A stretch of 64,000 bases of DNA from the NCBI GenBank assembly GCA_965216875.1, contig OZ244207.1:5120001-5184000 (forward strand). Direction: 5' to 3'. This DNA comes from Rubripirellula sp. (GTDB taxonomy: Bacteria; Planctomycetota; Planctomycetia; Pirellulales; Pirellulaceae). Positions 15,001 to 21,000 of the stretch are shown here, in pieces. The position numbers were made by a program. Position 1 is the stretch's first letter, and the number at the start of each line of letters is the position of its first letter.

Positions 15001-18000
15001 TGACGAGGTCTTGGTTGAGGTGCTGCAAGCGGGGATCTGCGAAACCGATCTACAACTTGCCCGCGGGTACATGGGATTCCAAGGAGTGCTGGGGCACGAA
15101 TTCGTTGGTGTCGCCCAATCGGGGCGATTCTCGGGTCGACGCGTCGTCGGCGAAATCAATTGCAACTGCCGGCAGTGCCCGCGCTGCGCGTCCGGCCTAG
15201 GAAACCACTGCCCCAATCGGACGGTCATCGGCATCGACAAACACGATGGTGCGTTTGCCCAGTTCGTCAGCGTCCCCGAACATTGCCTCCACCCCGTTCC
15301 TGAATCGATCAGCAATGACCAAGCCGTTTTGGTTGAACCGCTTGCCGCTGGCTTCCAGATCCTCAGTCAGGTTTCATTCACGAGCGAGACCTCCGTGCTG
15401 ATCCTTGGTGACGGCCGGCTCGCCTACATGTCGGCGCAAGCTTTACTGACCGTCGTCGCACCGGAAAACTTGTCGATCGTTGGCAAGCATTCAGCCAAGC
15501 TGGCTCGGTTTGATCGCTGGTCCATCACGACCCACCCGCTCAACCAACTTGAAAGCGTTGAAACCAAGTCGTTCGATGTCGTGATCGACTGCACAGGATC
15601 AAAGACCGGCTTACCGCTGGCACTCCAGATGGTTCGACCGCGAGGTACCGTGGTCCTCAAGACGACCGTCGCGGGGCATCACGATCTTTCATTGGCCGCG
15701 ATCGTGATCGACGAAATCAACATTGTTGGTTCTCGATGCGGTCCCTTCGCCAAAGCAATCGAAGCGTAAGAAAACGGCCAAGTCAACGTCGACGGACTTG
15801 TCACCCACCGCTATCGACTCGACCAAGCCGATGACGCTTTTCGGAAAGCGACCGACCCGGAAGCCTTCAAAGTCGTCTTCACTGTGGCCAACTAAGTCGA
15901 GGGTAGCATCGTCCACATCCGCGATAGGTTCGCTCAATCGGCAGAGGCCGGCACGACGAACCAGCGGGCCGGTACGACGAACTGACCTTTTCGATCAGGG
16001 AAGGTGTCGCTGTCATATCGATAATCGTTGCAACCGGTACGAGATCTTCTGCTCGCCCCCCCGTTTTTGTGGATCGCCATCGGACTGAGGACTATCTTTT
16101 ACTGTCCTGAAGCCGCCCCTTTCGACCACATATCAAGGCGATTGTTCCATGCCCAGGCCGCTGACGTTTCAGCTTGGCGAGTGCGAGTTCACTGGCACTC
16201 TCAAAAAAGTCGACCGCTCGAAGCTGTACGGCTACAAAGAAGTTCAAGCGTTGGATGACGAGAATGACACGTGTGATCTCGCCACGCTCGCCGGTGATGG
16301 ACGCACATTGATTGGACGCGGTGGCACAGGTCTTGGTTGGCTCGATGCCGACGGATGTTGGCAAGAAAAGTCCGACTTGAAACCCGTCGACAAAGACGGC
16401 AAAGAAATCGAACCGGTTGCGAGTTCATTTAGTGCGCCGGTCAAACTCTTCGACACTGCAACGACCGAAGACTACCTCGACCATAACGTTCGACTTGTCT
16501 ACGCCATGGACCTTGATGGCGACCTTGACGATGTGGTCGCCGAATTGAAACGAGGGACGATTTTCAAGTTCCCGTACAGCTATCGCGGCGGCCTCGAAGC
16601 CGACACCGCCTTTCTACTGACCAACGAAGCTGGCGAAATCATGATGGCTGTCGGCGATCCGGCAAGGATCGAATACATCGGCATGCAAAAGACCGCCGCA
16701 ACCGTTGTCGAAGAAGACAGCGAGGAAGAAGGCGGGCTGATGGACTTTGACATGATCTAACGGTCGGCATCTTCTTGTCCCCATTCCATTGCAAGTGAGA
16801 TTCACGTGGGCGAAATCAACCTCAGCAACAGTGCTGGACGCGATGCGGTCGTTTCAACCGATAGCGTCTCAAGCTCGAAACAAACGCGTTGGCTCGATCA
16901 ACAAAGCCGACAAGCGTCAAGTGTTCGTATCGCAAAGTCGACGGTCGAGCACGATATCGATTCGCTTCTGGAAAAACATGGCGACCTCTCGGCTCTTGCC
17001 GACGCTCTCGTTGTGTCGGACCCCGAAATCGATTTCGAAAACACCGGCCGCTTCTTGAGCGAAACGTCGCGCGTCTACATCGGCCAAGATCGAAAGATCG
17101 TCCGCAACGTTCGTTTCATGGAAATCGTCAAGAACGCCGATGGCTCGGTTCGCGAAGAACGGCCGCGTGTGCTTGCCGATACGAATGTCGCAGGCGAGTC
17201 GCCGCTGAAATGGTCCGGCGTCTACATCCCGAAAGACAAGGCGATTCGCAAGTTCGTCTTCTCAGGCAAAGTGCAATTGCATCACGTCAACGGCCTGACT
17301 TTCGACTTCCTGTTTGGGATGGCCAAGGAACTTCAGCAGCGCAATTGCTTGATGCTATTGGGCGCCGGATCGAAATCGAACCAACCTCTGATCCTTCGTC
17401 GCGGTGGCACGCCTTATCGCGGCTTCCTCGAAGGCCGAATTGAAGGGGACGAGTATTGCTTGTTGCTGCATTTCTCGAACCTCGAACTGAAACTTCCTGA
17501 ACCTGGCGAAGAAGACTGACTGCGGGAGAACCAATATGAGCACTGCGACTGATCTGTTGGACCGCCAGCGGTTCGAAATCAAGATGGGCGACTATGGCGT
17601 GGGTACCTCACACGCTGTCGCCGATTCGAACATTCTTGCCAAGACGCAAGACTATCGTCGACAAGCCGGTTCACGGATGATCCCGCTGGGAAAATCGGAC
17701 ATCCGAGGAAAAATCCCAGCATCGGATTATCACGTCTCACGAAAAGTCGACGGTGAGTTTACGGTTTTGGTGTACCGCGACGGCGAGATCTTTTCGATCA
17801 ACCCTGGCGGAACTGTTCGCATCGGTCTGCCATGGCAAGCCGAAGCCGCCAAAGCACTCAAGAAAGCGAACATCAACGAAGCGATGATCGCTGGCGAGCT
17901 TTACGTTCACAATGAAGAACGTCGCCCGCGCGTCCATGATGTGAGCCAAGTCGCCAGGCAACCTGACAGCGAAGCCGACCTCCAACTTCTTTGCTTTGCC

Positions 18001-21000
18001 GTCTTCGATGTGATTTCCATCGATCAGCAGCCCGCAAGCGAAGCCTACGCGAGCACTTGGCAAACCATCGAAAGCCTGTTTGGTGGCGGCGATCTCGTTC
18101 ACCCCGTTGAAACTCGAATCATCGCCGACACCGGTGGCATCGAACAGCTGTTTGATAAATGGGTCGAGGGAGAAGATGCCGAAGGCTTGGTCGTGCGCAG
18201 CGACAGTGCGGGATCGTTCAAAGTCAAACCTCGCCACACCGTTGATGCGGTGGTGGTCGGATTCACCGAATCGACCGACGACCGTCAAGGCATGCTCCAT
18301 GACTTACTCGTCGCCGTGATGCGCGAAGACGGAACGTTTCAGATCCTTTGCCGAGTGGGCGGTGGCTTTGATGAAGACGAACGCCGGTCATTACTTAGCG
18401 ACCTGAAAGACATGGTCGTGCCAAGCGAATACGCCGAAGTCAATTCCGATTACGTCGCTTACCAAATGGTGCGTCCCAATTGGGTCATCGAGATCAGCTG
18501 CCTTGACATGATTTCGCAGACGACCCGTGGCGGCAACATCAACCGCATGGTGCTCGACTTCGACGCCGACGACACAGGCGGCTACAAAGTCGTCCGACGC
18601 CTTCCACTTGCAACCGTGATTTCACCCCAGTTCGTTCGCATTCGCGAAGACAAACAGGTGCATCCCAAAGATGTGCGTCTTGCTCAGGTGAGTGACCGTG
18701 TTGAAGTGGCGATGACCGAGCTGGACGCCAAGAACTTTAAGCTCCCCAAAACCGAAATCTTGCACCGCGAGGTCTACACGAAAGAATCGAAGGGCCAAAC
18801 GATGGTCCGAAAATTCGTTGTGCTCAAGACAAACAAAGAAGAAGAAACCGAAGAATACCCAGCGTTCGTGCTCCATTACACGGACTTCAGCCCGAACCGC
18901 AAGGATCCTTTGTCACGCGACGTTGCGGTCAGCGATTCGAAGGAACAGATCGAGGCACTTCTGCAGACCTGCAAAGACGAGAACATCAAAAAGGGTTGGA
19001 ACGCGGTAGGGGAGGGGAGTGCGGACGCGCAAGCGGTCGCCGTCGAGGAAGCCCCGAAAAAGACCGCGAAGAAGAAGGTGACCAAAAAGAAAGTCGCCAA
19101 GAAAAAAACGGCAACCGCTGAAAAAACCGACGCGGCACCGAAGAAAAAACGAGCCACCAAGAAAAAGAAGGCGAAGTAGCCGTCCTCGTCACCACGCTCC
19201 CGCGTGGTGACGCACTCTTCGGACGCTCCGCGTCCTCTGCGGACGTCATGCTCCGCATGACAATCGCTCGAATCGTAGCTACCTTCGCCAGAAGGTGGTT
19301 TCCATTGGCAGACCGCTTCCCAACACCCCACGCTCTGGCGAGCGTAGCTACGGCGAGCGTTTGTTGTCATGCACAGCATGACCTACTAGACGGAGTGTTA
19401 CCGAACGATGGTCCGAGCCGATGTCGGGACCAACGTTGTGCTGGACGCACTGGAGGTCGGTGCTGATCATCCCGTGATCAAGCACCAGCCCAAAGGCTGG
19501 GTTCGCAAACCGGGCGTACCAAGTCGGCTGCATCCCACTTGATGCACGCCTCAAGTGCGACCGACGCTCGAAGTCGCCAAAAAGCGGAGACCAAGGCGTC
19601 AAGTTCAAGTCGCCTACAAGGATCGTCGGCATCGTGTCACGATTCCTTTCCCGCGAGATCCTATCAGCAAGCTGCTTCAAGTGGTCGTTGCGTCTATCAA
19701 ATCCTCTCTTTCCCATAGGCGGAAGCGGATGAGTTGCAATCACTCGGTACTGCTTTGATTCCTTTTCAATCGTTGCTGCAATGGTGAGGATGCGATCGAC
19801 GTTTAATTCAAAGCTTTGGCAATCGGTTATCGGAAACCGGCTGTAGAGTCCGATCCCGAAATTACTGTCATCCATTGGGAATGGCTGTCGGAATGGGTAC
19901 CGTTGACCAAATTCGCTGACGATCCGATCCCCCAACGATGTACTCAATTCCAACACAGCAAAAACATCGGGACTCCTTTCGGAGATATCATCGATGATCG
20001 CCTCATGATTCCTGTTCGCCGTGTTAACGTTGGTCACCATCACTACGATCTCATTGCCGCCGGCAAGCTCAACATTTGCCGGGAGCATTGATCGAAAGAA
20101 AGACAGGTGGATCGTGATCAAGGTCGCACCGAACAAGGCCCAGCGCCATTTGCGGTAGCAGACTGACACCATCGAAACGCCCAGCAACCCGATCACTTGC
20201 TGCACGCGCAGGTTCGCAACGATGTCGGCGACCCAATGTTGCCGAGCGAAGAAAGCGGCGAGTGTCGTCACTGTGCCAATCGCAAGGCAGACAACGACTA
20301 ACGACCAAATCCGTTCAGCGGCCCATTTCAGTAGGCCCGACGATTCGGTGGGCGATGAAGACGAATCGTGATCATTCATCCTCAAACGCACGCTTCTGCA
20401 ATCCTCGGCCCTGCAAGTAATCGCTAATGGGCCTGGGGCAGCCTTGAAGACGTCCCTCGTCGTGCATGCGGAGATAGAAATCCCAGTAGCTGCGAACGCT
20501 GTGTTGCGAGACCAAGTATTCGATGAAGGTCTCACCAATGCAGTACAACCGGTCGTAAACCGCCGGGCAGTATTCAATGACCGGACGGTTGAGCACAAGC
20601 AGCCCGCCTTCGAGACTTGCCGTTCGCTCAAGGGTCCACTCAGCGAGATCACCACAGGTTTCGAAACGCACGTTGAAATGACAACGCTCAGACCGAGTCA
20701 GCGTCAACGTCGCTCCATCATCATGCACGTACCGAGCCCAGCGTCCGATGACATCCCGTTCCCCATCGCTCGATTGATAAACGTTGACTCCATAGTCACG
20801 CAGCAACGGGCGCAGGTCCTCGCTATCCATCGGCCGGCGTTGAAGACGCAGATCGAGGTCACGCTCGATTTCGCGATTCCGATCAGTATCCACCATCTCT
20901 GCATTCATGGTCACTTCACCTGAGTTTGCTGGAACGAACCTTGTTCATGGTATCCCATTTTTCATTTCGGTCGACGCAGTCGACTCATCGCGTCTTTGCA

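Follow-up and report, generated by a model that had tools for sequence, protein, structure and literature searches.

The two-component bacterial end-joining system consists of a Ku homodimer (PF02735) and the multidomain ligase LigD, as found in B. subtilis, mycobacteria and Pseudomonas. A closed Ku ring requires a free DNA end for loading, and canonical bacterial Ku uses a GLVNIP loop and a C-terminal helical arm for synapsis. In LigD, the Pol and PE domains serve gap filling and phosphate removal. A published genetic precedent for a bacterial Ku heterodimer is found in Sinorhizobium meliloti, where, according to the available part of the report, ku3 and ku4 form one operon and a heterodimer was proposed from genetics (PMC6379672). 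The same text describes Ku3 and Ku4 as ordinary, recognizable Ku orthologues with a canonical three-domain LigD4 and a Lys-rich tail on one subunit only. Bacterial ATP-dependent ligases with an NT-OB_2-WGR architecture have been reported for deltaproteobacteria and Planctomycetia (PMC7470946, available part). Surveys of non-homologous end joining (NHEJ) in bacteria rely on sequence detection of Ku, and approximately 10% of 5,973 genomes were reported with a LigD-type ligase only (PMC7719229, available part). No paper on the gene family described below was found in a literature search that excluded most subscription papers and supplements.

The locus was analyzed within a 64,000-nucleotide stretch of a Rubripirellula sp. 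genome, hereafter the window. Three open reading frames lie on the + strand: gene A (g03929; 16149..16760; 203 aa; start ATG), gene B (g03930; 16806..17519; 237 aa; start GTG) and gene C (g03931; 17536..19179; 547 aa; start ATG), with gaps of 45 nt between A and B and 16 nt between B and C. The promoter scan of the locus returned no sites (1.1 in shuffles), and terminators were at chance level. Positions 14800–19300 were covered by two DNA runs of one sample with zero differing letters, an agreement that is not independent because the sample is probably the source sample. In a rough count against a same-genus genome, pN was 0.09–0.12 and pS was 0.71–0.79 for the cassette genes.

The arrangement is well conserved. 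Among loci with enough flank, A was located upstream of B in 61 of 66 and the ligase downstream in 56 of 62, and the complete A-B-C order was observed in 43/51 loci with flank on both sides and in 28/29 genome stretches. The ligase adjoined B in all 20 B-positive genomes of the family, and across 57 loci the pairwise identities of the three proteins correlated at 0.90–0.91. At one locus with a non-adjacent ligase (L002), the ligase was still present elsewhere in that genome. A single-protein scan of genome contigs yielded two loci. The tight spacing and the kept order agree with the three-gene operon, in one order and strand, proposed in the initial annotation. As in the Ku-LigD system, the putative Ku genes adjoin an ATP-dependent ligase with a PF04679 OB domain.

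Neither A nor B matched a Pfam family at E ≤ 5, the same outcome as in the initial annotation, and none was matched in NCBIfam at E ≤ 1. Profiles of A and of B retrieved no Ku from the PDB sequences at E ≤ 10, and hhalign comparison with 25 planctomycete Ku cores gave no link to Ku (P 0.6 for A and 0.13 for B). At the level of structure, A is predicted to adopt the Ku core fold, a split beta-barrel with a bridge arm, over approximately residues 1–178 (AF2 model, pLDDT 81, alignment of 76 rows), reproducing the fold assigned to it earlier. Ku-containing entries made up 36/36 of the Foldseek matches listed. VIA aligned 159 residues to B. subtilis Ku 20–188 (9vnq; Z 10.7, rmsd 5.9 Å) and 160 residues to 9i91 (Z 10.8, rmsd 6.0), the matches spanning barrel and bridge. 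The rmsd to Ku is high and SPOC-type rows lie less than 2 Z from the Ku rows, with 89–109 residues aligned versus 159–160 for Ku. The Ku80 and Ku70 cores were the next-best structural matches (Z 8–9.6), below bacterial Ku, and in a BFVD search with the A model the only rows under E 0.01 were two phage Ku proteins.

The alignment of the A model stops at residue 188 of 9vnq, and the model is disordered beyond residue 180; unlike B. subtilis Ku, the predicted structure has no segment matching the C-terminal helical arm (residues 189–244). The beta1-beta2 loop GLVNIP, which is conserved and serves synapsis in bacterial Ku (PMC12784961), was present in the canonical Ku alignment and absent from the consensus of both A and B, as read from the alignments. 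Conserved basic positions in A include R3, K20, R23, K25, K74, R115 and R146. The protein ends in a disordered acidic tail and carries a net charge of −22 (family median −19, core median −10). Such strong acidity is unusual for half of a DNA-binding ring and counts against the end-joining reading given below. The tip of the tail, MDFDMI (16740..16757, + strand), follows the pattern hydrophobic-D-F-x-hydrophobic, and [LMVIF]DF.[MLFI] occurred within the last 8 residues in 65/76 rows. We regard this DFxM tip as a candidate docking motif, judged from its conservation. Residues 184–203 of A are unnamed in the A-B interface listing, which does not mean that they make no contact.

The product of gene B is near-neutral to basic, and its family comprises 598 clusters at 50% identity. 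Conserved basic positions include R12, R41, R211 and K229, among others, and tails rich in Lys, Ala and Pro, resembling those of bacterial Ku, are found on some relatives. In an Atlas search, which gives a lead only, the best cluster was unnamed (0.91) and no Ku cluster appeared. The pairing of A with B predicted earlier was reproduced: the A+B complex scored 0.77 against 0.00 for the best of three controls, a mark reached by 116/157 solved and 2/215 mismatched pairs. The runs shared at least 93% of approximately 300 contacts, with a partner pLDDT of at least 79. Reciprocal contacts in the model (A106–115 with B147–153, A176–177 with B216–218 and A159 with B228) suggest a pseudo-two-fold axis, and an intertwined dimer is predicted, although this pass may come from resemblance to solved Ku dimers. 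From this contact pattern and the family tails, B is most likely the second Ku-core half. Its length, with an end at an approximately equivalent position, suggests that B also has no C-terminal helical arm.

The two proteins have no detectable likeness to each other in sequence, as had been claimed. Shallow profiles found nothing. Deeper profiles gave 127–132 colinear columns (P 0.015 and 0.002), but this alignment was lost when the comparison was repeated locally with thinned profiles restricted to query columns, where 20/60 shuffles were as high; block shuffles reached 27.7 against the earlier 28.2, so the deeper signal is not counted as evidence of paralogy. No A-B fusion occurred among the best 150 representatives. 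The pair is distinguished from canonical Ku by its two very unlike subunits without a PF02735 match, and from Ku3-Ku4 by the sequence invisibility of both subunits and a dedicated ligase family. An asymmetric heterodimer, as predicted for A and B, is shared with eukaryotic Ku70/Ku80, which acts with DNA ligase IV. The vWA, SAP and C-terminal domains are absent from A and B, and the present analysis gave no evidence of common descent with Ku70/Ku80.

Gene C is an ATP-dependent DNA ligase with nucleotidyltransferase (NTase) and OB domains. PF04679 was its sole Pfam match over the cut-off, and PF01068 had no match in this genome at E ≤ 0.001. The ligase profile matched ligases of archaea and human, at a best E of 7.8e-25, and the significant PDB matches were all DNA ligases. 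Motifs I (Lys), III, IIIa, IV, V and VI are present along with the OB domain. Across 54 rows, K70, G73, E121, G217, K231, R370, D372 and K373 are invariant, and K70, E121, F157/D158, E216/G217, K229/K231 and R368/R370/D372/K373 are kept in 51–54. Motif I, KVDGEF, lies at 17743..17760 (+ strand), with the adenylated Lys70 present in 54/54 rows. The arginine of this motif (KxDGxR), kept in LigD, is replaced at position 75, the four commonest residues being F (36), L (6), M (4) and T (4). In other ATP-dependent ligases this arginine touches the AMP ribose (PMC7470946, available part); R42, R69 or R95 might stand in for it here.

The initial annotation had assigned the ligase an extra conserved C-terminal domain and a Lys-rich tail in place of the polymerase and nuclease domains of LigD. 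The 547 residues are accounted for by the NTase, OB, C-terminal domain and tail, leaving no LigD Pol or PE, and LigD models scored far under the cut-off. The extra domain also holds and is now predicted to be a WGR fold (18727..19008, + strand, approximately residues 398–491), without a literal W-G-R triplet. Its AF2 model reached pLDDT 92, and VIA placed PARP1/3 on top (Z 8.9, rmsd 3.2, 83 aligned to the PARP1 WGR), the top five rows all being WGR chains (Z 7.9–8.9) and the next row scoring 6.2. The top three Foldseek rows were also WGR, though at E of only 0.07–0.08, and Atlas gave WGR at just 0.75, a lead only. PF05406 missed 56/56 ligase rows at E ≤ 1, and hhalign against five WGR domains gave P 0.004 with a probability of 9%. 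The NT-OB_2-WGR ligases likewise join WGR, a domain also of PARP1–3, to an ATP-dependent ligase; as far as the available text describes them, they combine OB_2 with a Pfam-recognizable WGR, whereas the cassette ligase has a PF04679 OB domain (PMC7470946).

The Lys-rich tail did not stand as a family trait. The present copy carries a Lys/Ala-rich low-complexity tail (19051..19176, + strand), but it is optional in the family, since 14 of 57 complete loci have a ligase tail of 25–300 aa; optional Lys-rich tails also occur in the Ku-LigD system. Tails of at least 25 aa on B were found in 9 of these loci and tails on both proteins in none, a candidate rule of one exclusive basic tail that was rejected as not significant (P ~0.06). 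A fusion of approximately 560 aa is carried by 5/57 complete loci. One protein, P0329, consists of B joined to the WGR domain of the ligase; it may be a deletion product and is thus not proof of a B-WGR contact, a similar internal deletion being present in G427.

An AEP primase-polymerase/HAD-phosphatase fusion gene is encoded 2.4 Mb from the cassette in this genome. The gene adjoins the cassette in 15/55 loci of at least 3 kb. Full-length AEP-HAD was present in 14/20 B-positive versus 1/171 B-negative family genomes, and the lone B-negative genome holds a deleted cassette. It was not adjacent to the cassette in 10 of the 14 and was not found in full length in the other 6 B-positive genomes. 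The association is overstated by these counts because the profile was built from cassette neighbors and related genomes are not independent. This separate gene probably supplies the polymerase and end-healing functions absent from the ligase, giving a wider set that, like Ku-LigD, includes an AEP polymerase and a phosphate-removing enzyme. Unlike LigD Pol, the polymerase is TOTE-like, fused to a HAD phosphatase and often unlinked.

We consider it likely that A, B and the ligase form a heterodimeric-Ku, NHEJ-like pathway. This function, proposed in the initial annotation, gains support from the predicted Ku fold of A, the modeled A-B pairing, the operon conservation and the absence of canonical Ku from this genome. 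Besides the acidity of A, several observations weigh against it: the missing sequence link to Ku, the high rmsd and the nearby SPOC rows, the possible dependence of the complex score on solved Ku dimers, the unseen GLVNIP loop, the replaced motif I arginine, the six B-positive genomes in which full-length AEP-HAD was not found, and the lack of mutual exclusion with canonical Ku. Acidic A and neutral-to-basic B would pair as an asymmetric heterodimer of Ku type. Their bridge arms would intertwine to close a ring, and the ring would load on and protect a double-strand DNA end. Sealing would fall to the co-encoded ligase, whose WGR domain, of the PARP type, probably recognizes the break junction. 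As the pair has no GLVNIP loop and A no C-terminal helical arm, the WGR domain may also help keep both ends together. In many carriers, this genome included, AEP-HAD would fill gaps and remove phosphates. Consistent with the role proposed for the WGR domain of the ligase, the PARP2 WGR domain is reported to bind across DNA ends placed end to end (PMC6294510, available part).

More tentatively, and with real doubt that all of its parts hold together, the cassette could represent a second, independently organized four-part prokaryotic end-joining pathway. Its first part would be a minimal Ku, obligately asymmetric with an acidic A and a basic B and devoid of the synapsis loop and arm through loss. 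The bridging of ends would have passed to the PARP-like WGR of the ligase, the acidic DFxM tip of A would act as a recruiting motif, and AEP-HAD would be a co-inherited, often unlinked end-healing enzyme. Its carriers would span several phyla, common gut Alistipes among them, and sequence-based surveys would have scored them as "NHEJ-negative" or "ligase only". If the pairing prediction is true, a widespread DNA break-joining kit has been overlooked by standard sequence searches, and a sequence-invisible Ku family of the size seen for B alone would redraw the map of end-joining bacteria. A and B would offer a small, soluble, directly testable model for the division of labor in a Ku heterodimer, the ligase a bacterial example of a break-repair enzyme that bears a PARP-type WGR domain, and the set possibly a compact end-joining kit for bacterial genome editing.

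The spread of the cassette is patchy (12/401 genomes of the phylum and 20/191 of the family) and its flanks are variable. Both features would suit a role in mobility or conflict, in which an excised element or invading DNA would have its ends capped by the A/B pair, in the manner of phage Mu Gam, and would be circularized or integrated by the ligase, the chromosomal copies being domesticated leftovers. In one family the neighbors of the cassette are large serine recombinases, DUF2924, AbiEii or a restriction helicase; one genome (G162) has three copies, and the ligase is fused to an AAA+ domain. Moreover, the AEP finds its best Pfam match, mostly under the cut-off, in the TOTE conflict primase. 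Nevertheless, searches for B in 72,556 plasmids, in 50,697 phages and in viral contigs gave no match, and A, B and C had no PADLOC match (E ≤ 0.1). Loci of family f1 are flanked by ordinary housekeeping or metabolic genes. In the present genome, the GC and GC3 of the cassette match those of the genome, and its site beside ADH and RecQ is common to a same-genus genome. We therefore judge this explanation unlikely.

It is still less probable that the A/B ring slides on DNA while the WGR-ligase and AEP-HAD heal and seal nicks or gaps rather than double-strand breaks. WGR domains recognize nicks too, according to the available part of PMC6294510. A phosphatase, a gap-filling polymerase and a ligase also make up a nick-repair set, an EEP-family gene follows the ligase in 3 loci, and the canonical Ku synapsis elements were unseen in A and B. 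However, a closed Ku ring loads only at a free end, nick sealing has no need of Ku, and the ligase is far more strictly kept with A and B than AEP-HAD is. Repair of RNA or RNA/DNA hybrids with the Ku/SPOC-like barrel pair as an adaptor is highly improbable. In its favor, motif I without arginine is reminiscent of RNA ligases, the HAD half has a weak match, under the cut-off, to HAD_SAK_2 (E 0.0009–0.002), whose name derives from proteins of RNA repair, and the barrel is common to SPOC domains. Against it, the ligase combines a PF04679 OB domain with motif VI and has exclusively DNA ligases among its significant PDB matches, the A-Ku alignment runs through the bridge, which is absent from SPOC, and an AEP polymerase suits DNA gaps.

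For the NHEJ-like pathway, the distribution of canonical Ku was also considered. As stated in the initial annotation, this genome has none, with no match to PF02735 or to a planctomycete Ku profile. Among the 191 family genomes, B was present in 20 and canonical Ku in 32, the latter in 3/20 B-positive and 29/171 B-negative genomes (Fisher P 1.0); in the phylum, canonical Ku occurred in 0/12 cassette genomes and 56/389 others (Fisher P 0.39). Mutual exclusion was thus not found in either sample, and the cassette as a replacement for canonical Ku is unsupported. Separately from the A/B pair, tandem pairs of canonical Ku genes also occur in Planctomycetota.

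The cassette consists of three open reading frames on the forward strand of the window: A (g03929; 16149–16760, 203 aa), B (g03930; 16806–17519, 237 aa, with a GTG start) and the ligase C (g03931; 17536–19179, 547 aa), separated by gaps of 45 nt (A–B) and 16 nt (B–C). Neither A nor B matched any family in Pfam (E ≤ 5), NCBIfam or PADLOC, and searching PDB with their profiles found no Ku. Clustering at 90% gave 592 relatives of A and 1,915 of B, the latter forming 598 clusters at 50%, and a rough count against a same-genus genome gave pN of 0.09–0.12 and pS of 0.71–0.79; these values indicate that A and B are real genes. 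The close relatives bearing names came from Rubripirellula, Pirellulaceae and other Planctomycetota. Few of the 30 distant B representatives looked up had names, and these were Kiritimatiellia, Alistipes (at least 1,000 contigs) and one planctomycete. B was present in 12 of the 401 genomes of the phylum sample, once as a fragment. One B relative (P0286) has a SAM domain in its tail.

The gene order was analyzed in 82 loci, of which two came from genomes and the rest were the best 80 among 475 metagenome hits for B; the set was picked via B and is biased to close relatives. A lay immediately upstream of B in 61 of the 66 loci with at least 400 nt of flank, the ligase immediately downstream in 56 of the 62 with at least 600 nt, and both together in 43 of 51. 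In the family sample, B occurred in 20 of 191 genomes and was adjoined on the same strand by the cassette ligase in all 20, one of them broken. The order A-B-C was also seen in 28 of the 29 genome stretches fetched; the exception was G427, where B is gone, probably through an internal deletion, and one half of A directly adjoins the ligase's second half. Of the loci with no ligase, one (L002) was traced further, and its ligase was located elsewhere in the same genome. Over 57 complete loci, the three proteins correlated at 0.90–0.91 in their pairwise identities. The three-gene operon described in the initial annotation is conserved. A single protein in which B is fused straight to the WGR domain of the ligase was also noted, and both this fusion and the G427 junction may be internal deletions (P0329; L159, 7969–9257).

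The AlphaFold2 model of A (76 rows) had a pLDDT of 81, with disorder beyond residue 180. All 36 listed Foldseek rows were Ku-containing entries, the best being Bacillus subtilis Ku (E 1.9e-5), and a Foldseek-independent search ranked the Ku proteins of B. subtilis and Mycobacterium tuberculosis at the top (Z 10.7 and 10.6; rmsd 5.9–6.0; 159–160 residues aligned). SPOC-type barrels ranked next (Z 7.0–8.9), with just 89–109 residues aligned; the longer alignment to Ku is due to the bridge arm, the element that makes Ku a ring, and the high rmsd probably arises because this arm was modelled without its partner. The Ku fold proposed for A was therefore recovered by both searches with the predicted model. 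The alignment ends at residue 188 of B. subtilis Ku, and A thus lacks the later helical arm. The GLVNIP loop, described in PMC12784961 as the centre of the Ku dimer–dimer synapsis interface, was seen in neither A nor B.

When A and B were modelled together, the complex scored 0.77 against 0.00 for the best of three controls, a mark attained by 116 of 157 solved pairs and 2 of 215 mismatched pairs, although Ku dimers are already among solved structures and the pass may therefore reflect likeness rather than binding. The runs shared at least 93% of contacts, with a partner pLDDT of at least 79, and the interface of approximately 300 contacts included the reciprocal pairs A106–115/B147–153, A176–177/B216–218 and A159/B228. 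Replacing A in the complex model lowered the pLDDT of B to 51. These predictions agree with the heterodimer proposed initially. The claim that A and B share no sequence likeness also stands, since a weak profile likeness between them was lost under controls and rejected. The median net charge was −19 for A (core −10, tail −9), +3 for B and −3 for the canonical Ku core, and several relatives of B have long Lys/Ala/Pro tails, a trait also found in bacterial Ku (PMC6379672). The C-terminal tip of A follows the pattern hydrophobic-D-F-x-hydrophobic in 65 of 76 rows and is not named in the A–B interface; it is a candidate docking motif.

The best matches of the ligase profile were ligases from archaea and the human ligases I and IV. 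Of 54 rows, 51–54 keep motifs I, III, IIIa, IV, V and VI; motif I reads KxDGEF and lacks the usual arginine, a residue that in other ligases is in contact with the AMP ribose (PMC7470946). The additional C-terminal domain (approximately residues 398–491) was predicted at a pLDDT of 92, and the top five rows of the Foldseek-independent search were all WGR-domain chains (PARP1 WGR: Z 8.9, rmsd 3.2, 83 aligned), the next unrelated row having Z 6.2; Foldseek gave the same ranking at an E value of just 0.07, and Pfam did not detect the domain. The extra domain of the initial annotation can thus be assigned a WGR fold, but the Lys-rich tail is optional: tails of 25–300 aa were found on the ligase in 14 of 57 complete loci, on B in 9 and on both in none. 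The WGR domain of PARP2 binds where two end-to-end DNA ends meet (PMC6294510). WGR-bearing ligases are already known, but with an OB type other than that of the cassette ligase (PMC7470946). In five loci (L136, 1897–5022; L137; L138; L144, 8061–11183; L148), the ligase-WGR protein is fused to approximately 560 aa more, in which Pfam detected an AAA+ domain in the two loci scanned. A second ATP-dependent ligase of the OB_2 type directly follows the cassette ligase in genome G333 (L145, 5321–6370).

The only other recurrent neighbor of the cassette was a fusion of an AEP primase-polymerase and a HAD phosphatase with a DxD motif (AEP-HAD), found in 15 of 55 loci of at least 3 kb. In this genome it lies 2.4 Mb from the cassette (C1:2730659–2731876; profile match E 3e-112). 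Its profile matched 21 family genomes, and after six with the AEP half alone were dropped, 15 had both halves; 14 of these had B, and the fifteenth was G427 with its deleted cassette. AEP-HAD was accordingly present in 14 of 20 B-positive and 1 of 171 B-negative genomes, a comparison that overstates the association because the profile was made from cassette neighbors and kin are not independent. In the phylum sample, six partial matches were dropped, and all three genomes with both halves had B. Among the 14 family genomes with both AEP-HAD and B, the fusion adjoined the cassette in 4 and was unlinked in 10, and co-transfer alone would hardly account for their joint presence at separate sites. 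The function of AEP-HAD would match that of LigD's Pol and PE domains, which the cassette ligase lacks. An exonuclease-endonuclease-phosphatase gene (PF03372) directly 3' of the ligase in three loci (L052, 10307–11020; L093, 10543–11391; L095) may likewise contribute to end healing. A PF03372 gene in the window itself (19348–20655, reverse strand) is convergent, appears membrane-anchored and is probably unrelated to the cassette.

We consider it probable that the cassette serves an NHEJ-like pathway. The A/B ring would cap a double-strand DNA end, AEP-HAD, where present, would clean and fill it, and the WGR-ligase would seal the ends and perhaps also bridge them. The cassette is proposed to work like Ku-LigD, yet it belongs to neither PF02735 nor the LigD class, since their defining features were looked for and not found. 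A bacterial Ku heterodimer has a precedent in Sinorhizobium meliloti Ku3-Ku4, as suggested by genetics (PMC6379672). No description of the A/B/ligase family was found in the literature searched, supplements aside, including the available parts of PMC11936186, PMC7719229, PMC8987985, bioRxiv 2025.01.08.631966 and PMC9638933.

End-capping on behalf of a mobile element or in conflict is an unlikely alternative. In one other family, the fused-ligase cassette of five loci has neighboring genes for serine recombinases, for DUF2924 or AbiEii proteins or for type I restriction (a restriction helicase), which indicates that it can ride on integrative elements, and G162 has three copies of it. The copies in family f1 have ordinary flanks, and no copy was found in the plasmids, phages and viral contigs searched. 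Repair of nicks is less probable still, and RNA repair is very improbable.

For the favored NHEJ-like pathway, the distribution of canonical Ku (PF02735) is also relevant. As initially stated, none was found in this 99% complete genome, where A, B and C are each single-copy. Among the family genomes, canonical Ku occurred in 3 of the 20 with B (once as a fragment) and in 29 of the 171 without it (Fisher P 1.0); the corresponding figures in the phylum sample were 0 of 12 and 56 of 389 (Fisher P 0.39). These counts tell against a simple replacement of canonical Ku by the cassette. Tandem or close pairs of canonical Ku were observed in Planctomycetota (G054:C252, G079:C461, G214:C223, G276:C2, G172:C68, G399:C94, G415:C133 and G499:C10), a Ku3-Ku4-like layout distinct from the A-B-C cassette.

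A divergent RecQ helicase gene (11904–14720, reverse strand) lies 1.4 kb upstream of A, a position shared with only one same-genus genome among those fetched. Also upstream of A, a zinc alcohol dehydrogenase gene (14930–15895, forward strand) contains an in-frame TAA at 15767–15769; same-frame homology to a 325-aa orthologue runs past it to approximately 15886, and the letters of this region were identical in two DNA runs of one sample. After the ligase stop codon comes an interspersed multi-copy repeat (19200–19400) that resembles a REP-type palindromic element; contig depth there reaches up to approximately 90 times that of the flank, with numerous loose ends and joints.
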